From an uncultured Planctomycetales bacterium (GTDB lineage: Bacteria; Omnitrophota; Gorgyraeia; Gygaellales; Profunditerraquicolaceae), in the NCBI GenBank assembly GCA_964603585.1, contig CAZRVK010000005.1, positions 18,609 through 71,274 on the forward strand: a stretch of DNA of 52,666 nt, read 5' to 3'. The notes under the pieces are model-generated. The model saw nothing but the letters and a program-made list of their open reading frames with translations. It was not told where the DNA came from and ran no database searches. The position numbers and the translations under genes were made by a program. Below, piece by piece: positions 10,478 through 51,934 of the stretch (its first letter is position 1; every line of letters begins with the position of its first letter).

Positions 10478-10487
10478 AAAGCGCGCT

Positions 10488-10605
10488 AAAAAGGGGACGT
10501 TTCTATTTTTCCGCTTCCCCTTTTTTCCTTCTTGACCAGCTTAGGTTTCTGGCATAAAATAACTTTCGCCAGGGAAAAGCGGAAAAATAGAAACGTCCCC
10601 TTTTT
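10488..10605. repeat. GGGGACGTTTCTA inverted-repeat element, locus A (29-bp arms, 60-nt loop)
   Basis: 10488-10516 is the exact reverse complement of 10577-10605. Confidence 0.95.
10532..10560 (+). promoter_or_regulatory. Sigma70-like promoter inside loop of locus A
   Basis: TTGACC-17-TAAAAT. Confidence 0.65.
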
Positions 10606-10615
10606 TCCTATAATT

Positions 10616-10640
10616 GTAGGGGGTGGTCGTGACCGCCCCT
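10616..10640 (+). repeat. GTAG-type REP hairpin
   Basis: gtagggggtggtcgtgaccgcccct. Confidence 0.85.
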
Positions 10641-10665
10641 GTATTTCTTAGTGAAGGGATTAAAT

Positions 10666-20283: not shown

Positions 20284-20306
20284 GTAGGGGCGGTCGTAAC
20301 CGCCCC
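20284..20306 (+). repeat. GTAG-type REP hairpin
   Basis: gtaggggcggtcgtaaccgcccc. Confidence 0.85.
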
Positions 20307-20375
20307 ATTTTCATAGTAAGAAAACGGTTAATAATCCTGGTGGGGGGATAATATATAGTTTGTTCTACGTGAATC

Positions 20376-20403
20376 GTAGGGGATGGTCGCGACCATCCAC
20401 TAC
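20376..20403 (+). repeat. GTAG-type REP hairpin (compensatory variant)
   Basis: gtaggggatggtcgcgaccatccactac. Confidence 0.85.
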
Positions 20404-20407
20404 AAAT

Positions 20408-20467
20408 AAAGGGGACGTTGCAATAAAGGGGACGCCTGCCTGCCGGCAGGCAGGTTTCTATTTTTCC
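20408..20467 (+). repeat. GGGGACGTTTCTA element locus B: truncated copy plus interrupted solo arm
   Basis: aaaggggacgtt (20408-19), then aaaggggacg[20-bp insert]tttctatttttcc. Confidence 0.9.
20435..20454. mobile_element. 20-bp perfect palindrome CCTGCCTGCCGGCAGGCAGG inserted in locus B
   Basis: Self-complementary; removing it restores the consensus arm exactly. Confidence 0.8.
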
Positions 20468-25329: not shown

Positions 25330-25758
25330 ATGCCTGTATTCATATTTGCGGCGATACTGTTTCATATTTGCGGCTCTTTTAGCTATGCGGAGGTTTATCC
25401 TTCCAGAGTCTGTATGCAAAATGTCTGCGTGCAGGTAGAGGTGGCAAAGAATTTCGAGGAAAGATCTGCCGGTCTTATGTCGCGGAAGAGCCTTCCGGAT
25501 GAGTCCGGGATGCTTTTTATTTTTGATCAGGCAGGATTTTATAATTTCTGGATGAAAAACATGCTGATCCCCCTGGATATTATTTGGATCGCAGATGACA
25601 GAACCGTTATTGATATCGCTAAATATGCTTATCCTTGCACAAAAGAATGTTTAAGCTTTAGCCCGAAGGCACCGGCTAAATATGTCTTAGAGGTTAATTC
25701 TGGTTTTTGCGATAAGAACAAGATTCAGACAGGGCAAAAGGTGGCTTTTAAGGATTGA
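25330..25758 (+). CDS. DUF192 protein
   Basis: VEVA..RSAGLM, GMLFIF, FWMKNMLIPLDIIWI, YVLEVNSG. Confidence 0.92.
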   Translation: MPVFIFAAILFHICGSFSYAEVYPSRVCMQNVCVQVEVAKNFEERSAGLMSRKSLPDESGMLFIFDQAGFYNFWMKNMLIPLDIIWIADDRTVIDIAKYAYPCTKECLSFSPKAPAKYVLEVNSGFCDKNKIQTGQKVAFKD

Positions 25759-25788: not shown

Positions 25789-27666
25789 TTACCCTTCCCG
25801 CAGTTGTTTTTCTGCATCTACCACATCGCGGTTAATTACCCTGACAGTTTCTTTTATCTTCTGGCGCAAGGTATTGGATGCTACCTGCGAGTCATTTATC
25901 TCTTTGAGGATTTGGATACTCATGCGGAAATAGCGGATCACTTCCCCTTCGTCTGTATCCGTAGATTGCAGGATCTTGGCAAAATTTGTTCCGCGCAGCC
26001 AGGCTTCTATGGTCAGACTTAAATTGAAATAGGGGGGTTTACTGAAAGGATATATCCGGTATTGAGTTTCTTTTTCCTGGATTTGAAGGTAAGTCTCATC
26101 ACATATCTTTTTGATCCTGCGGATATTTTTGGCCAGGTTAGGCATATGCTGGTTCTTGCGCGGCTCAAAAACCACCGCTGTAGTGAGTATCCCCAAACCA
26201 AATTCATCCAGTTCTTCTAAAATGCCTGCCGCAAAAAGCTCCGAGAGTATCAATTCATAGCCATAAACATTCCTGGCGAATTTTCCTTTTTGGGTGAGTC
26301 CTGAATTTTCGATATACCCCAGGTCTTTAAGCAGGTTCAATTTCGCCTCTAAAAGTCTGATCGCCTCATTGCGTTTATTTTTTCGCGACTGAAAATAGTG
26401 TAATGACCTGGGATATATCTCAAACAGGCCTTCTTTATGCTTTTCATAAAGGTTAAGCAGGGTAGCGTAAGATGTGTTTAGCTGGCTGTTTACTTCTTCC
26501 GGAGAAGAATAGACCACCAGTTTTGCTTCCTGTGGGCTGATACGGCGGGGATTGATCCGGCAGTAGATAAACCCCTCGGTATCTATCCCGCGCCTGCCGG
26601 CACGCCCAGCCATCTGGTAAAAATCACGGGTTTTTAAATTCCGCACATAATGGCCGTAAAACTTTCGCAGTTCATCAAAGATCACCGTGCGGCTGGGCAT
26701 GTTTATCCCTAAAGCGAAAGTTTCGGTGGTGAATATCACTTTTAAAAGCCGGCTGGTAAACAGGCGTTCGATCACTTCCTTTAAGGTCGGCAGCATCCCG
26801 GCGTGATGAAAGGCTATCCCTTTTTGCACCAAAGGGTACATCTCTTCTGCAGAGCGTTCATGCTTTAATTCAAATCTGCGGCAGAGGTCGTCATACAAGC
26901 TGGTTATCTGGGATTTTTCTTTAGAGTTAAGGAAATTATAACTGTAGAGCTCCCGTGCCAGGTCTTCGGCGCGCCTTCTGCCAAAAACAAAATAAATACA
27001 GGGCAGGCCTTCTTTCTGGCGTATATAATTGATCAGGGTGTTTAGCCTATTGGGGCGGACATCCTTAGTGGGCCGTAACCGGTTGATATTATCGACAATC
27101 TCGTTCTGGCATTGATAGAAGAAATGCAGTGGTACGGGGCGTTTTGGTTCGATGACGGTTTTAATCGGTTTTTTATGTATAGATTCCAGCCACTGGGCAA
27201 GTTGTTCGATGTTAGGGATAGTGGCAGACAGTGCCAGCATATTCATGTGTGCGGGTAAAAATATCAGGGATTCCTCCCAAACCGTACCTCGTTCCGGGTT
27301 ATCTATGTAATGTATTTCATCAAAGATCACCCACTGGTATTTTGCCAGGCTTTCTGGCTCATCCAGTATTTTGTTGCGGAATATTTCTGTCGTCATAATA
27401 AGTACTGGTGCCCCGGGGTTCAGAGAAACGTCTCCGGTCAAGATGCCAATGTTGTCTTTTAGCTGTAATTGAAAATCACGGAATTTCTGGTTAGAGAGGG
27501 CTTTGATAGGAGCGGTATAGATCACTCCGGTTTTGTCCTGGATACAGGTATTGATCACATGTTCGGCAATGGCGGTTTTTCCTGCCCCGGTAGGTGCGGA
27601 GACGATTACCGAATATTTCTGGTTTATATAATTGATTGCATCTTGCTGAAAAGGGTCGTAGATCAT
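25789..27666 (-). CDS. Ski2/HelY-like DEAD/DEAH RNA helicase
   Basis: APTGAGKT, PIKALSNQK, FDEIHY, LSATIPN, FHHAGMLP, QMAGRAGRRG, DSHCT-like end; ATG 27666 preferred over TTG 27702. Confidence 0.92.
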   Translation of the reverse strand: MIYDPFQQDAINYINQKYSVIVSAPTGAGKTAIAEHVINTCIQDKTGVIYTAPIKALSNQKFRDFQLQLKDNIGILTGDVSLNPGAPVLIMTTEIFRNKILDEPESLAKYQWVIFDEIHYIDNPERGTVWEESLIFLPAHMNMLALSATIPNIEQLAQWLESIHKKPIKTVIEPKRPVPLHFFYQCQNEIVDNINRLRPTKDVRPNRLNTLINYIRQKEGLPCIYFVFGRRRAEDLARELYSYNFLNSKEKSQITSLYDDLCRRFELKHERSAEEMYPLVQKGIAFHHAGMLPTLKEVIERLFTSRLLKVIFTTETFALGINMPSRTVIFDELRKFYGHYVRNLKTRDFYQMAGRAGRRGIDTEGFIYCRINPRRISPQEAKLVVYSSPEEVNSQLNTSYATLLNLYEKHKEGLFEIYPRSLHYFQSRKNKRNEAIRLLEAKLNLLKDLGYIENSGLTQKGKFARNVYGYELILSELFAAGILEELDEFGLGILTTAVVFEPRKNQHMPNLAKNIRRIKKICDETYLQIQEKETQYRIYPFSKPPYFNLSLTIEAWLRGTNFAKILQSTDTDEGEVIRYFRMSIQILKEINDSQVASNTLRQKIKETVRVINRDVVDAEKQLREG

Positions 27667-46780: not shown

Positions 46781-46836
46781 GCAATAAAGGGCAATAAAGG
46801 CAATAAAGGGCAATAAAGGGGACGTTTCTATTTTTT
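46781..46836 (+). repeat. (GCAATAAAGG)x4 tandem leading into solo GGGGACGTTTCTA arm, locus F
   Basis: gcaataaagg gcaataaag gcaataaagg gcaataaagg ggacgtttctatttttt. Confidence 0.92.
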
Positions 46837-46854
46837 CGAACTAAACTCATTTTC

Positions 46855-46876
46855 GGGGCGGTCGCAACCGCACCCC
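46855..46876 (+). repeat. REP hairpin lacking GTAG foot
   Basis: ggggcggtcgcaaccgcacccc. Confidence 0.7.
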
Positions 46877-46913
46877 ACAGGGTATATCCCTTTATAAGGG
46901 GATAAGGATAAAT

Positions 46914-48956
46914 ATGGTTAGGAAGATCCTTTTTATCACTTTAAGTAATCTCGGGGATATGGTTCTTACTTTTCCGTCACTGGATTATTTGCGGGTGGTA
47001 TTTAGCGAGGCCAGTATAACCGTTATTTCCGGTGAGCGCGGCAAAGAATTATTTGAAAACAATCCGTCGGTTTTTCGTTGGATAGCTTTTGATAAGCATG
47101 CCGCTCTAAGGGAAAAATTTTCTTTACTGCAAACTCTCCAAAAAGAAAGATTTGATTTGATCATAGATTTACGTAACAGTTTTTTTGGGGTATATCTTAA
47201 GGCCCAATATAAAACCAGTCTTTTTTTACTTCCTCCGAAGCAGATCCTGCATATGCGGGACCGGCACCTGTATAAGATCCAAAGTGTTTTATCCAATATA
47301 GGCCTTTCAAAGGTAAGGGATGTTCAGAAAGTAGCATTACATATAACGGAATCCGATAAAGATTATGTGGGGGATTTGCTAAAAAAGAATGGCGTGATCT
47401 GGGAGGATCGTATCATTGCGATCTCCGTTGGCGCGCGCAGCCACATTAAGCGCTGGAAAGAAGAGAAATTTGCGGAATTAGTATTCTCTTTGGCTAAGGA
47501 ACCAAAGGTAAAAATGGTTCTGGTGGGAGACTCCCAGGATGCACCGATTGCTGAACGCATTATTGAACTTAGTAAAGTCCCGGCAATCAATTTTACCGGT
47601 AAAACCACTTTTTTACAGTTGGCAAGTTTATTTCAAATGTCGGCTTGTGTAATTACTAATGACAGCGCGGCTTTGCACCTGGCAAGTTATCTGGACCGTC
47701 CGGTTGTGGCGATCTTCGGGCCGACGGATGAATCGAAATACGGCCCTTGGTCAAGAATCAGCGCAGTGGTAAAAAAAGAAGTCTTCTGCCGTCCGTGTGA
47801 ATTGGCGCAATGCCAGTTTGGCACGTTAAAGTGTATGGAGATCATTAAGACAGAAGATGTGTTAGGGCAAGTAAGGAATATCCTGGATACAGGTATGTTC
47901 CTGGCTGTAAGTAGAAGCGAATTTAAGCGCATACTCATCGTACGCACGGACAGGATCGGAGATGTTGTGCTTTCTACCCCGGTCATTAAAGCATTGAGGG
48001 ATGGGTTTCCCCAGGCATATATTACAATGATGGTTTCTCCTTATGCTGCGGGAGTAGTTGAGGGGAATCCGTATTTGGATGAGGTGATTGTTTATGATAA
48101 AGATAAAGAACACAAAAGCTGGTGGAGTTCTTTTAACTTTTGTCGAGAGCTCTCCAGAAGAAAATTTGACCTGGCGGTCATTTTGCATCCGACGAACCGG
48201 GCACACCTTTTAGCTTTTCTTGCCGGGATTCCCCGGCGGGTTGGGTATGACAAGAAACTGGGGTTTTTGCTCACTGATAAATTATTACATTCCAAGCAGT
48301 TGGGTGAAAAACACGAAATAGGATACAATCTGGATCTGGTACGTGTGCTTGGACTTGATCCTAAAGATTGCCTGCCTTTTGTGCCGATTAAGCCCGAGGC
48401 AGAAGCCTGGGCAAACCAGGAATTGGCTGCTGCCGGGATCAAAAAAACCGAGAAGATATTAGTAATCCACCCCGGGGCAAGCTGTCCTTCGAAGATTTGG
48501 CCTCCGGATCGTTTCGCGGCAAGCGGGGATAGATTGATCGAACGGTACGGTTTTAAAGCCGTGATTATTTCTGGGCCAAAAGATATTGGTTTGGCTGATG
48601 ATCTGGAAAAAATGATGAAACATTCTGCATTGAATCTTGCTGGTAAGACTACAGTGGAACAGATGGCGAGTATTTTAAAAAGAAGCCGGCTTTTTATCTC
48701 CAACGACTCTGGTCCAGTGCATATTGCTTCAGCTTTAGGGGTGCCGGTTGTTTCTATTTTTGGCCGTTCCCAGGCTGGATTAAGCCCTAAACGTTGGGGG
48801 CCGAGCGGTTCAAACAGCCGTATTTTGCATAGAGAAGTGGGTTGTATCGAATGCCTGGCGCACAATTGTGTTAAGGGTTTTGCATGTTTAAAAGCGATTA
48901 CTGTAGAGGATGTAATGATGGCTGTCTCGGAATTATTGGAAGTAAATAAAACTTAA
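46914..48956 (+). CDS. Tandem GT9::GT9 heptosyltransferase-like fusion
   Basis: SNLGDMVL..TNDSAALH..FGPT, then DRIGDVVLSTP..SNDSGPVH..FGRS. Confidence 0.9.
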   Translation: MVRKILFITLSNLGDMVLTFPSLDYLRVVFSEASITVISGERGKELFENNPSVFRWIAFDKHAALREKFSLLQTLQKERFDLIIDLRNSFFGVYLKAQYKTSLFLLPPKQILHMRDRHLYKIQSVLSNIGLSKVRDVQKVALHITESDKDYVGDLLKKNGVIWEDRIIAISVGARSHIKRWKEEKFAELVFSLAKEPKVKMVLVGDSQDAPIAERIIELSKVPAINFTGKTTFLQLASLFQMSACVITNDSAALHLASYLDRPVVAIFGPTDESKYGPWSRISAVVKKEVFCRPCELAQCQFGTLKCMEIIKTEDVLGQVRNILDTGMFLAVSRSEFKRILIVRTDRIGDVVLSTPVIKALRDGFPQAYITMMVSPYAAGVVEGNPYLDEVIVYDKDKEHKSWWSSFNFCRELSRRKFDLAVILHPTNRAHLLAFLAGIPRRVGYDKKLGFLLTDKLLHSKQLGEKHEIGYNLDLVRVLGLDPKDCLPFVPIKPEAEAWANQELAAAGIKKTEKILVIHPGASCPSKIWPPDRFAASGDRLIERYGFKAVIISGPKDIGLADDLEKMMKHSALNLAGKTTVEQMASILKRSRLFISNDSGPVHIASALGVPVVSIFGRSQAGLSPKRWGPSGSNSRILHREVGCIECLAHNCVKGFACLKAITVEDVMMAVSELLEVNKT

Positions 48957-49019
48957 GATTATTGATTAAATGCCGATTTAAAGTATGCTAATACTATTAT
49001 CTTTAGATTAAGTTTCATT

Positions 49020-49047
49020 GCAGGGGTCAGTCGTGACCGCCCATTAC
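49020..49047 (+). repeat. Degenerate GTAG-type REP (GCAG)
   Basis: gcaggggtcagtcgtgaccgcccattac. Confidence 0.7.
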
Positions 49048-49061
49048 AGAAAAAAAAAAGA

Positions 49062-49147
49062 AAAAAAGGGGACGTTTCTATTTTTTATCTATCTTAATTG
49101 CTAAAAAAATAGAAACGTCCCCTTTTTTGGAAACGTCCCCTTTTTTG
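49062..49147. repeat. GGGGACGTTTCTA element locus G
   Basis: Arms 49062-49086 / 49104-49128, 17-nt loop, extra partial arm 49130-49147. Confidence 0.95.
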
Positions 49148-49167
49148 CCCTTTTTTGATAAAAAGTC

Positions 49168-49196
49168 TTGATATTGCTAATTTATTCTAATATACT
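49168..49196 (+). promoter_or_regulatory. Sigma70-like promoter
   Basis: TTGATA-17-TATACT; implies true start at ATG 49234 rather than TTG 49168. Confidence 0.65.
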
Positions 49197-49233
49197 AATA
49201 TTATTATTTTTCAGTCAAAAATCCCGCAGGCTT

Positions 49234-50829
49234 ATGAATAAACTGCTCATTTTGTTTTTAAAGTTTATTTCCATTCCAGTTTTTTTATTTTGTTTTTCCT
49301 CCTTCCAGTATGCTTTCGCTAACAATATGGCGGTAAGTAGTGTGATTTTGACCTCACAAGATACAGGTGCTGATACCGTCAAGGTCCAATTCAATATCTC
49401 TTGGGCTAATTCCTGGCGGGACGCTGCAAATTACGATGCCGCCTGGGTGTTTGCTAAATATTCTACCGATGGAGCGACTTGGAAACACCTGACTTTAAAG
49501 AGTTCAGGGACTAATCCTTCGGGATTTGTTACCGGAAGCGGCACATCGATACAGATCGTGGTGCCAACTGATAAAAAGGGGTGTTTTATCCAGCGTTCCG
49601 GCAATGGCACAGGCACTTTGACCACCACCGGTATAAACCTGGTTTGGGACTATGGCACTGACGGATTAGGAGACAGCGATATCTTTACTGCGAATATGCG
49701 CCTGAAAGTATTTGCGATCGAGATGATATATATCCCAGCCGCAAGTTTTTATATTGGCGATGGCAATGGGACAACCGAGTCGGTTTATGCATTTCATAGC
49801 GGTACCAGTAATTCTGCGGCATTGATCGGTACGTCTTTGACTAGAAATATCCGGACTGATTTTGCTCTAAATAATGATGATACTCAGCTTACTGGTACGG
49901 GAGCAGGTTCAGGCCTGGGTATTGGCGGTTCGGGTGTATGGTCGGGCTTAGATACTAATAATGACGGCACTATTGATAATGCCAGTTTCCCTACTGGATA
50001 TAATCCATTTTACCTGATGAAGTATGAAGTCACCGAAGGCCAATGGGTGGAATTCTTTAATACTTTAACCAGTGCCCAAAAAACCGCAAGAGACCTTACG
50101 GGTGCAGCCGGTAAAAACAGTCAGGCAGTAGAGTCTCGCAACACTATTGCCTGGTCTGGTGGGACAAGTGATGCGACTACTATCCGGGAAAATCGGGCAT
50201 GTAATTATCTTTCCTGGTCAGATTTGATGGCTTATGCGGATTGGGCGGGTTTGCGACCTATGACAGAACTGGAATTCGAAAAAGCCTGCCGTGGCTCTAC
50301 TGCTTCTGTGTATGCAGAATATGCCTGGGGTAATAGCAGTGTAACACAGGCAGCGACTATTTCTGGTAGTGAAGATGGGACAGAAACGGTTACTAATTCC
50401 GGAGCAAATTGTAATTTTAATGCGATAACTTTTACTGGAGGAGATGGAGGGCAAGGCCCATTACGCGCAGGCATTTTTGCTACCAGTGCTTCTACTCGAG
50501 CGGTTGCTGGAGCAGGTTATTATGGGAATATGGAGTTATCTGGCAATAATTGGGAAAGAGCTGTAACTGTAGGTAATAGTACTGGAAGGTCATTTCAAGG
50601 TACGCATGGAGATGGCAGTTTAACCACTGCAGGTTTCGGCACTAATACTGATTGGCCGGGATATATTACCGGTAGTGGTATATCAGATGTTCAAGGTTCT
50701 GGTCTTCGCGGTAGCAGCTGGGCCGATGATTCAGACAAAGCACGTTCATCCAATCGTAGTTATGCTTCTTTCGCGTATGATGGCCGTGAAAATTTTACCG
50801 GAGGCAGGTTGGCCAGAACTTTAAATTAA
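49234..50829 (+). CDS. Secreted FGE-sulfatase/SUMF1-fold (CLec-like) protein
   Basis: Signal peptide ending AFA; FYLMKYEVT, SWSDLMAYADWAGLRPMTELEFEKACRG, MELSGNNWE, RGSSW, GGRLAR. Confidence 0.88.
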   Translation: MNKLLILFLKFISIPVFLFCFSSFQYAFANNMAVSSVILTSQDTGADTVKVQFNISWANSWRDAANYDAAWVFAKYSTDGATWKHLTLKSSGTNPSGFVTGSGTSIQIVVPTDKKGCFIQRSGNGTGTLTTTGINLVWDYGTDGLGDSDIFTANMRLKVFAIEMIYIPAASFYIGDGNGTTESVYAFHSGTSNSAALIGTSLTRNIRTDFALNNDDTQLTGTGAGSGLGIGGSGVWSGLDTNNDGTIDNASFPTGYNPFYLMKYEVTEGQWVEFFNTLTSAQKTARDLTGAAGKNSQAVESRNTIAWSGGTSDATTIRENRACNYLSWSDLMAYADWAGLRPMTELEFEKACRGSTASVYAEYAWGNSSVTQAATISGSEDGTETVTNSGANCNFNAITFTGGDGGQGPLRAGIFATSASTRAVAGAGYYGNMELSGNNWERAVTVGNSTGRSFQGTHGDGSLTTAGFGTNTDWPGYITGSGISDVQGSGLRGSSWADDSDKARSSNRSYASFAYDGRENFTGGRLARTLN

Positions 50830-50837
50830 ATTTCATT

Positions 50838-50865
50838 GTAGGGGGCGGTTATGACCGCCCCCTAC
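50838..50865 (+). repeat. GTAG-type REP hairpin
   Basis: gtagggggcggttatgaccgccccctac. Confidence 0.88.
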
Positions 50866-50883
50866 CTGTTAGAAAAAAAAGGT

Positions 50884-50952
50884 AAAAAAGGGGACGTTTC
50901 TATTTTTTCGCGAATTAAGGAAGGATGAAAAATAGAAACGTCCCCTTTTTTT
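50884..50952. repeat. GGGGACGTTTCTA element locus H
   Basis: Arms about 50884-50909 / 50927-50951, ~17-nt loop. Confidence 0.95.
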
Positions 50953-51004
50953 GAGCCTTTTTTAATTGATTTAATTTGGTTTTGTGATAAAATTAAACGT
51001 TCGA

Positions 51005-51934
51005 ATGATTGATACCACTAAAATAAAGACATACTCCATAAAAAAACGGTATAGCAAGGTAAACCTGGCGGATTTTGCCGGGGCTCCTAAGCTAGGGATT
51101 TCTTTTGCCAAATTCTTAGATTCCTTGCCCAATATTTTAAAGGCAAAAGATATTCTTTCGGCCAGAGATGCGATCGTTAAAGCGCATAAGAAAAACAAGG
51201 CCGTGATTTTTATGGCTGGCGCTCATGTGATCAAATGTGGGCTTAATCCGGTAGTGATTGATTTGATCCGCCGTAAGGTCATCACCTGTATTGTCCTGAA
51301 TGGCGCCTGTGTGATCCATGATTTCGAGCTGGCTTTTCAAGGCAAGACTTCCGAGGATGTTGCGGTTAACCTGGAATGCGGGACATTTGGCATGGGCAAG
51401 GAAACCGCGGATTTTATAAATTATGCGGTTAAAGATGGAGTTTCCCGTGGCCTGGGGTTTGGCGCGTCTGTAGCAAAAGCGCTTGCGAAGGCGAATTTGC
51501 CGCATAAAGATTTAAGCCTGCTTTATAACGCTTATAAATATAAAGTCCCGGTTTGTGTGCAGGTAGCGATCGGAACAGATATTATCCACCAGCATCCTTC
51601 TTTTGATGCCGCATCTGCTGGAGAAGGTTCAGGCAGGGATTTTAAACAACTTGCAGAGAGTATTATCCGCCTTGACAACGGCGGGGTGGTCTTAAATTTC
51701 GGGTCAGCGGTGATCTTGCCGGAAGTATTTCTAAAGGCGTTGAATCTATCGCGCAATCTGGGTTATAAAGTAAAAGATTTCACCACCGCAAACTTCGATA
51801 TGATCTATCAATACCGGCCCAGCCAGAATGTAGTTACCCGGCCGGTGATCGGCGGAGGCAAAGGGTATTATATAATTGGCCACCATGAGATTATGCTGCC
51901 GCTTTTGGCACAGGCGGTAGTGGATAAGTTATAG
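51005..51934 (+). CDS. Conserved hypothetical protein with deoxyhypusine-synthase-like fold
   Basis: FMAGAHVIKCGL, NGACVIHDFE, TSEDV, AIGTDIIH, GSAVILPEVFLKAL, GHHEIMLPLL. Confidence 0.75.
   Translation: MIDTTKIKTYSIKKRYSKVNLADFAGAPKLGISFAKFLDSLPNILKAKDILSARDAIVKAHKKNKAVIFMAGAHVIKCGLNPVVIDLIRRKVITCIVLNGACVIHDFELAFQGKTSEDVAVNLECGTFGMGKETADFINYAVKDGVSRGLGFGASVAKALAKANLPHKDLSLLYNAYKYKVPVCVQVAIGTDIIHQHPSFDAASAGEGSGRDFKQLAESIIRLDNGGVVLNFGSAVILPEVFLKALNLSRNLGYKVKDFTTANFDMIYQYRPSQNVVTRPVIGGGKGYYIIGHHEIMLPLLAQAVVDKL

Follow-up and report, generated by a model that had tools for sequence, protein, structure and literature searches.

Paired REP and palindrome units around a secreted FGE-fold paralog inserted at a conserved lipopolysaccharide gene junction in an uncultured Omnitrophota bacterium

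How did a gene encoding a secreted FGE-fold protein come to lie within an otherwise continuous lipopolysaccharide (LPS)/heptose gene cluster, with its promoter and entire coding region enclosed between two similar non-coding units? This question is raised by a 52,666-nucleotide stretch of DNA (hereafter the window; C5:18609-71274) from the metagenome-assembled genome (MAG; 2.17 Mb, 96% complete) of an uncultured bacterium of the Omnitrophota. Each unit combines a repetitive extragenic palindromic (REP) sequence with a longer, perfectly paired palindrome, and an initial annotation had interpreted the whole as a composite transposon. The FGE gene is a lineage-specific insertion and a native paralog; its flanking units are juxtaposed members of two dispersed repeat families, and are explained somewhat better, in our opinion, as the 3' trailers of successive genes than as the ends of a dedicated composite element.

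The insertion is apparent from the organization of the locus and its counterparts in related genomes. The conserved left neighbour is the GT9::GT9 double heptosyltransferase gene (46914-48956, + strand; Pfam PF01075 twice) and the conserved right neighbour is the DHS-like gene (51005-51934, + strand). About 2.0 kb of DNA lies between the GT9::GT9 stop codon at 48956 and the conserved promoter of the DHS-like gene at 50963. It consists of a 44-nt spacer, the left unit (49001-49156), a promoter (49168-49196), the FGE open reading frame (ORF; 49234-50829) and the right unit (50819-50957), so the units do bracket the promoter and the whole gene, as initially described. The LPS/heptose context was also correctly recognized: GT4, deacetylase, GT9 and GT9::GT9 genes (Pfam) are located upstream, and the DHS-like gene is followed by PfkB and by the KDO and Lpt genes kdsB, kdsA, kdsD, kdsC and lptCAB. 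The junction was surveyed in 24 loci from genomes of the family and order and in 80 metagenome loci. In most of the approximately 100 related loci reaching far enough upstream, the DHS-like gene is preceded by GT9::GT9, so the synteny that the initial annotation had proposed as a check is conserved. Many relatives have gaps of only 33–110 nt between the two genes, containing the conserved promoter alone, and no FGE homolog was found in this gap among these loci, which are related at family or order distance only. The adjacency of GT9::GT9 and the DHS-like gene is, thus, the conserved state, and the 1.8–2.0 kb bearing the FGE gene is an insertion. Vertical inheritance of this gene at this position, which, in relatives without flanking repeats, the initial annotation had named as the finding that would refute its reading, was not observed, the gene being absent in every relative examined.

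The DHS-like promoter is highly conserved in relatives (TTGATTTAG..TGTGCTAAAAT..ATGATTAAT), and its profile, built with nhmmer from the promoters of 54 relatives, matches the window once, at 50963-51017 (+ strand, E 1.6e-7), where the promoter and gene start read TTGATTTA..TGTGATAAAAT..ATGATTGAT; a promoter scan also identified this site, the right-hand boundary of the insertion. Across Omnitrophota (54 related loci), the promoter is laid out as TTGATTTAG, ~8 nt, TTGTGCTAAAAT, ~12 nt and ATGATTAAT, often ~10–25 nt past the GT9::GT9 stop codon. The junction is a recurrent landing place, because eight other lineages (L013, L080, L081, L082, L085, L099, L105 and L115) have gaps of 1.3–2.2 kb occupied by unrelated genes; a 667-aa protein is encoded in three of these gaps. 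Repeats are also found there in relatives with no inserted gene: L091 (2170-2270; DHS-like protein 71% identical) has two tandem left arms of the palindrome, in the variant form GGGGACGGTTCTATTTTT, directly 3' of the GT9::GT9 stop codon, and L060 has a GTAG-type REP. No hairpin was found at this junction in five hairpin-rich relatives.

The inserted gene (49234-50829, + strand) encodes a protein of 531 aa that was rightly described as secreted and FGE-like: the N-terminal signal peptide, as read from the sequence, ends in AFA, the FGE-sulfatase domain PF03781 is matched with an E value of 2.9e-16, and FGE chains in PDB are matched at E ~1e-7 over ~65–80 residues. The protein has no cysteine past about residue 402, and its GGSW-type motif reads RGSSWADDSDK. 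In true FGEs, the catalytic cysteine pair is located after this motif. The inserted gene, which seems to lack this pair, probably encodes a binding (lectin-like) protein rather than an enzyme. There are six FGE-fold paralogs in the source genome: the window copy, one at C3:172081-173651, a tandem trio at C9:19038-24068 and one at C1:368049-369554. Phylogenetic trees place the window copy together with the C3 copy (76% at the amino-acid level), the C9 trio and two close outside sequences, with support of 99/99, apart from other homologs from Omnitrophota and Planctomycetota. Its GC content (45%) is typical of the genome. The gene is, therefore, a relocated, lineage-specific native paralog and not foreign DNA.

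The paralogs differ in what surrounds them. The nucleotide similarity between the window and C3 copies (79%) ends inside the coding sequence (49351-50678). For the C3 paralog, a hairpin lies 20 nt past the stop codon and nothing upstream; the 90%-identical ortholog of this paralog from another sample (L142) has a hairpin at the same place, showing that gene plus trailing palindrome form a stable unit. No paired repeats or hairpins were found around the C9 and C1 paralogs. The nearest outside homolog (L141:761-2231), with 78.6% nucleotide identity to the window copy, neighbours a small-peptide gene on one side and a membrane-protein gene on the other, with an ordinary terminator but no flanking units, and no flanking repeats were found at 13 further FGE homolog loci in other genomes. 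ORF calling split this L141 homolog into two overlapping frames, and there is a stop near position 1046; it may be a pseudogene, or the sequence may be misassembled. Differences between the six paralogs are greatest in the C-terminal segment preceding the ending GGRxxR[TS]xx-stop.

The two units are direct repeats of ~135 nt (core coordinates 49001-49134 and 50819-50957) with the same build: a 12-nt extension, TTTCATTG, a GTAG-type REP, an A-tract and a hairpin with perfect arms of 24–25 bp. In the left unit, the extension CTTTAGATTAAG (49001-49012, + strand) is identical to the right copy at 10 of 12 positions. It is followed by TTTCATTG (49013-49020) and a decayed REP, GCAGGGGTCAGTCGTGACCGCCCATTAC (49020-49047), which together span 49013-49047 (nhmmer E 0.016; fold -9.3 kcal/mol, z -1.2), then by an A-tract (49048-49067) and a palindromic mini-element (49062-49140). 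The arms of this mini-element (49062-49086 and 49104-49128; 25 nt) are 100% complementary around a 17-nt loop (fold -32.9 kcal/mol); there is an additional third arm at 49130-49140, and A and T tracts are present on the flanks. In the right unit, the extension CTTTAAATTAAA (50819-50830, + strand) takes in the final 11 nt of the FGE ORF (..T L N stop) and one base beyond it. TTTCATTG (50831-50838) and an intact REP (50838-50865) together occupy 50831-50865; the REP lies 8 nt past the stop codon and has a 12-bp stem (-25.5 kcal/mol). The palindromic mini-element (50884-50951), again flanked by A and T tracts, has 24-nt arms (50884-50907 and 50928-50951) that are 100% complementary around a 20-nt loop (fold -37.2 kcal/mol). 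The units were initially said to have the same order and orientation; this holds for the succession of REP and hairpin but not for the hairpin loops, which are inverted with respect to each other.

The left and right units are 77.5% identical over an alignment of ~138 nt, and 38 of 47 positions are identical in the extension-plus-REP portion. At this level of divergence, whatever event produced the pair must be old. The order and spacing from REP to arm (20 vs 24 nt) are alike for this pair alone. The extension CTTTA[G/A]ATTAA[G/A] followed by TTTCATTG is present only at these two units in the source genome. Exact TTTCATTGNAGGGG has only three copies in this genome and none in 120 other family genomes, TTTCATTGYAGGGG is likewise found in 0/120, and bare TTTCATTGNAGGGG with two mismatches does not exceed chance in the window. 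The right extension is the canonical end of the FGE ORF: the protein ends RTLN-stop and most family members end R[TS]xx-stop at the same length. The left unit, thus, apparently starts with a copy of the end of an FGE gene. This extension is the only feature suggesting that one unit was copied from the other; derivation of the left unit from an FGE 3' trailer by duplication is the more likely reading, although it is one that we hold weakly. Two other candidate remnants in the left flank were rejected: a decayed copy of the DHS-like promoter at 48962-48990 (E = 27 with the 54-relative profile, vs 1.6e-7 for the real promoter), and a remnant of the FGE promoter (15/17 match, shuffle p ~0.02), too weak for use.

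The palindromes belong to a family dispersed throughout the genome. The arm GGGGACGTTTCTATTTTT has 64 exact copies at 49 loci, 31 of which have both arms, with loops of 4–75 nt. Six of the 49 loci lie inside the window, where the arm 18-mer has 12 matches vs 0.09 expected. The source genome has two Y1 transposase genes. One of these genes (C8:25634-26314), encoding a 226-aa protein, sits between arms at 25624 (+) and 26444 (-). The arm at 25624 is a solo arm, accompanied on its side of the gene by one hairpin (25454-25497), and a second hairpin (26418-26461) is present on the opposite side. The stretch as a whole (C8:25454-26461) has the appearance of an autonomous element for the hairpin family. 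Orthologs of this transposase (53–57% aa identity) lie within the same arms in five further genera (G008, G054, G088, G053 and G058), giving six genera in total; more distant Y1 paralogs are not bracketed by arms in this manner. The C8 protein matches PF01797 above the cut-off (50.4 bits), with a visible HVH motif, and scores 60.9 bits against NF047646, below the cut-off of 80, so it is better described as like the REP-associated tyrosine transposases (RAYT) than as their equivalog. The ~70-nt hairpins are best read as putative miniature derivatives (inverted repeat, short loop, inverted repeat) of this Y1 element. Of the 121 family genomes, 71, representing 58 of 98 genera, contain the arm 17-mer, with a reversed control of about zero, and a close transposase ortholog was detected in 5/12 arm-rich vs 2/12 arm-free genomes, a comparison that is suggestive only, as MAGs are incomplete. 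The 17-nt arm is letter-identical in 58/98 genera in which orthologous proteins are only ~55–78% identical, at 1 to ~190 copies per genome. The second Y1 gene (C6:108374-109066), which scores above the NF047646 cut-off (86 bits), is flanked by another short repeat, GTAAAGAGACGTTTTCCA, present twice, and may represent a second repeat system.

The hairpins occupy characteristic positions. According to crude ORF calls, 24 of the 26 full hairpins for which both neighbour genes were called face the 3' end of a gene, and 14 are within 45 nt of a stop codon. The loci are also strongly clustered (19 neighbour pairs within 2.5 kb vs 2.6 expected; maximum 9 in 2000 simulations), so the bracketing of one to three genes is ordinary in this genome. 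The bracketed genes include the transposase itself, GT9::GT9 and accessory-looking genes (CHAT-TPR, TPR, Smr, small peptides and hypotheticals); around one such bracket (C7:39747-42484), relatives show no conserved synteny at the flanking ABC-F gene. GT9::GT9 lies between the left unit and a solo left palindrome arm (46818-46835) followed by a decayed GTAG-type REP (46856-46878), together at 46818-46878, upstream of the gene. A family of 62–78-aa proteins with the motif KKxWKQPxFIVLV..ERVLVxCK and no Pfam match was also encountered (C3:256371-259303, C8:23764-23964, C8:42091-42282, C9:4023-4259, L141:221-420). Its genes form a tandem array of about six, with a palindrome half-arm 12–52 nt upstream of each, and one copy adjoins the FGE homolog in L141; its members are possibly precursor peptides.

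The REPs form the second family. GTAG-type REPs, GTAGGGG(N)GGTCGCGACC(N)CCCCTAC, are present at ~23 loci in the source genome. No RAYT flanked by such a REP was found in this 96%-complete genome, both Y1 genes of the assembly being flanked by other repeats. Within the window, REPs and arms lie together at 10487-10642, 20285-20467, 46818-46878, 49013-49140 and 50831-50951. Spacers and orders differ among these loci, indicating that they are not simple copies of one composite, and the strict REP-then-arm pattern was found in 0/120 other family genomes, including those with ~100–190 arms. The units are, thus, juxtaposed members of two dispersed families (49 and ~23 loci), and the dedicated composite element initially proposed is not upheld.

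The explanation that we favour, and that we consider slightly more probable than not, is that of a relocated paralog with a duplicated 3' trailer, now insulated by transposase-derived, terminator-like palindromes. A native secreted FGE-fold paralog would have moved into the junction of GT9::GT9 and the DHS-like promoter, and the two composite units would be the 3' trailers of the successive genes GT9::GT9 and FGE, each consisting of a GTAG-type REP beside a ~70-nt palindromic mini-element. The FGE 3' trailer would have been duplicated at the gene's arrival or by tandem duplication, with later decay of the left REP; the route may have been tandem duplication and loss, or the integration of a piece of more than unit length. 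The tandem FGE copies on C9 count in favour of a duplication of this kind. The succession of A-tract, long stem and T-tract makes the palindromes look like bidirectional terminators, and they probably act, or are simply tolerated, as such. The newcomer would, thus, be a transcription unit of its own. The FGE gene and the DHS-like gene each have a promoter downstream of a unit; that of the FGE gene is sigma-70-like (TTGATA-17-TATACT; 49168-49196, + strand), by consensus match only.

Several observations weigh against this explanation. The match between the extensions covers only 10 of 12 positions in AT-rich DNA and was spotted post hoc, with a chance estimate of p ~0.003. The loops of the left and right hairpins resemble each other in the inverse orientation (85% over 80 nt, opposite strand), and the closest relatives of the two hairpins lie elsewhere (right vs C13, 90%; left vs C11, 86%) rather than in each other. 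The explanation does not account for the finding that REPs stand beside arms in 6/6 cases in the window (7–126 nt) vs 0/16 elsewhere in the genome. The long-loop hairpins of the units were not called in a simple terminator scan, and a search of RNA runs found the stretch in none of them. We found no genus-level relative in which the site was empty or had a single unit. The DHS-like protein ranking next was 74–75% identical, and a search with the DHS-like protein in metagenome contigs and a set of 5.8 billion proteins left the range between 75% and 100% identity empty. Exact look-ups gave no match for the FGE protein and, for the DHS-like protein, the source sample's own contigs only.

The composite transposon of the initial annotation survives in part. 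According to this interpretation, the units, or the outer arms of their palindromes, would serve as ends for a Y1 transposase acting in trans, and the whole block of unit, promoter, FGE gene and unit would have moved together. The block is indeed an insertion relative to all relatives examined, the two units share their extension, and a candidate Y1 transposase for the arms has been identified. The idea makes mechanistic sense: the transposase gene itself lies within these arms in six genera, such that any pair of arms resembles the ends of the autonomous element; the bracketing of one to three genes is far above chance, and many of the bracketed genes are accessory-looking. It is opposed by the lack of a second copy of the module in the genome, the match to the closest paralog ending inside the coding sequence, and by the surroundings of the homologs, with a hairpin only downstream at C3, no paired units at C9, C1, L141 or the 13 homolog loci, and a different context at L141. 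The vertically conserved GT9::GT9 gene has brackets of the same kind. With the arms as ends, the element would include the right REP but leave out the left one, and the extension common to both units would be unexplained; the divergence of the units (77% alike) would also make the event old. Excision leaving one unit, which the initial annotation had suggested looking for, was not seen, as no joint skipping the gene was found in Logan contigs of eight runs, although this argument is weak because contigs show presence and not absence; what the runs X4–X9 contain of this strain or related ones is limited to fragments of 150–300 nt, some of them from FGE, and none bridges a junction. Fragments with 93–100% identity are present in wastewater, manure and landfill samples. 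Inspection of the flanks (48990-49000 and 50956-50966) revealed no target-site duplication, which Y1 transposases are not expected to make. We consider such a composite unlikely. A broader version, in which pairs of mini-elements are portable ends and a Y1 (TIRYT-like) transposase moves the intervening DNA, with the FGE gene and the small-peptide, CHAT-TPR and other bracketed genes of C8 and C11 as cassettes of single-strand, HUH-driven shuffling, seems slightly less likely still; if true, it would explain the eightfold excess of close hairpin loci and the letter-perfect arms across 58 genera.

The opposite possibility is that the REPs and mini-elements landed independently in both intergenic regions, without any relation to the arrival of the FGE gene. 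A REP stands beside an arm in three consecutive intergenic regions (46.8, 49.0 and 50.8 kb) and in two more (10.5 and 20.4 kb), with differing spacers and orders. The REP loops of the two units also differ (TCGTGA vs TTATGA), each hairpin is nearer to copies elsewhere than to its partner, and the L091 arm pair and the L060 REP show that such repeats occur in the same junction without an inserted gene. Chance alone nevertheless fits poorly with the 12-nt extension plus TTTC, which is restricted to the two units in the genome and found in 0/120 family genomes, or with a REP-to-arm order and spacing that are similar in this pair alone, and independent landing is, in our judgement, conceivable but doubtful. 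Two further readings can be given very little weight. FGE-type lectin folds with a variable C-terminal segment ending in GGRxxRTxx are typical targets of diversity-generating retroelements (DGR). The fold and ending of the inserted protein, together with the concentration of paralog differences in that segment, could thus suggest a DGR target, with the REP after the stop codon as the downstream hairpin and the FGE C-terminus as a remote variable region. No reverse transcriptase (PF00078) was found in the 96%-complete genome, no template-like repeat of 50679-50818 exists anywhere in it, and the hairpin belongs to the dispersed REP family; the first two observations led us to discard this reading. 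It is also very improbable that the MAG contigs were misjoined at the repeated arms. Logan contigs do end within the hairpins, but one 12.7-kb Logan contig spans the FGE interior, the whole right unit, the DHS-like gene and further, and contigs of two runs connect GT9::GT9, the left REP and the spacer, then the unique loop with both arms, then the third arm and the start of FGE. Both junctions are thereby tiled in MAG order by independent contigs (runs X1 and X2), and depth is even over the region. Contigs C15 and C20–C25 of the same MAG are short, with a GC content of 59–68% vs 43–45% for the genome, and are probably binning contamination.

If the relocated paralog with a duplicated trailer is the correct interpretation, the locus provides a clean example of REP-like sequences and transposase-derived palindromes gathering at operon junctions, and of a lineage-specific surface-protein paralog that has settled, with a promoter of its own and terminator-like flanks, in a conserved LPS cluster. 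This would be useful for the annotation of Omnitrophota MAGs, the assemblies of which break at such repeats. The wider value lies in the repeat family, with a 17-nt arm identical in most genera and tied to one Y1 ortholog group. Should arm pairs carry cargo, this would be a new way in which HUH transposases move genes, a proposition that a single locus is insufficient to establish.

The closest known counterparts of the palindromes are the TIRtrons, in which Y1 genes (TIRYT) are flanked by long terminal inverted repeats (TIR) with dispersed copies (Di Nocera et al., 2013; PMC3733652). The likeness extends to a RAYT-like Y1 gene between long inverted repeats starting with GGGG, and to repeats that are dispersed, often dimers or hairpins, clustered and mostly downstream of genes. 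The family described here differs in that the majority of its copies form complete palindromes (TIR, short loop, TIR), with perfect stems of 24–25 bp, and in the letter-for-letter identity of its 17-mer across 58 genera of a single Omnitrophota family; the published motif GGGGWSAS is matched only in part (GGGGACGT) (PMC3733652). The GTAG tag defines one of two REP super-families (PMC3733652). The REPs of the window resemble those of bacterial interspersed mosaic elements (BIME) and REPIN-RAYT systems in their GTAG start, GC-rich stem of 9–12 bp, short loop, intergenic location and ~23 copies. They differ in that neither Y1 gene is flanked by the REP, copy number is low, and the REP stands beside another repeat family in the window only.

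The other comparisons concern mobility and transcription. Y1 transposases make no target duplications and act on single-strand hairpin ends. IS200/IS605 elements and their gene-less derivatives, the palindrome-associated transposable elements (PATEs), share with this family an inferred Y1/HUH chemistry, hairpin-forming ends and short non-autonomous derivatives, but IS200/IS605 ends are two different subterminal hairpins rather than one perfect palindrome, and in our case there is no tnpB and the transposase is nearer the REP-associated family (NF047646). Bidirectional intrinsic terminators resemble the palindromes in their GC-rich stem base between an A-tract and a T-tract and their post-stop location between unidirectional and convergent genes; the stems here are much longer (24–25 bp), the loops measure 4–75 nt, and the sequence is conserved as a repeat family and not per gene. 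Composite transposons formed from non-coding miniature elements include the integron mobilisation units flanked by miniature inverted-repeat transposable elements (MITEs) and the Tn3-derived inverted-repeat miniature elements (TIMEs), and these composites are backed by target-site duplications or by the same module in several contexts. The FGE locus resembles them in that two non-autonomous copies flank a cargo and a matching transposase is present elsewhere in the genome; it differs from them in that neither a target-site duplication nor a module in multiple contexts was found. Set against these systems, the locus is a repeat-rich insertion site built from known kinds of repeat, rather than a demonstrated new type of transposon.

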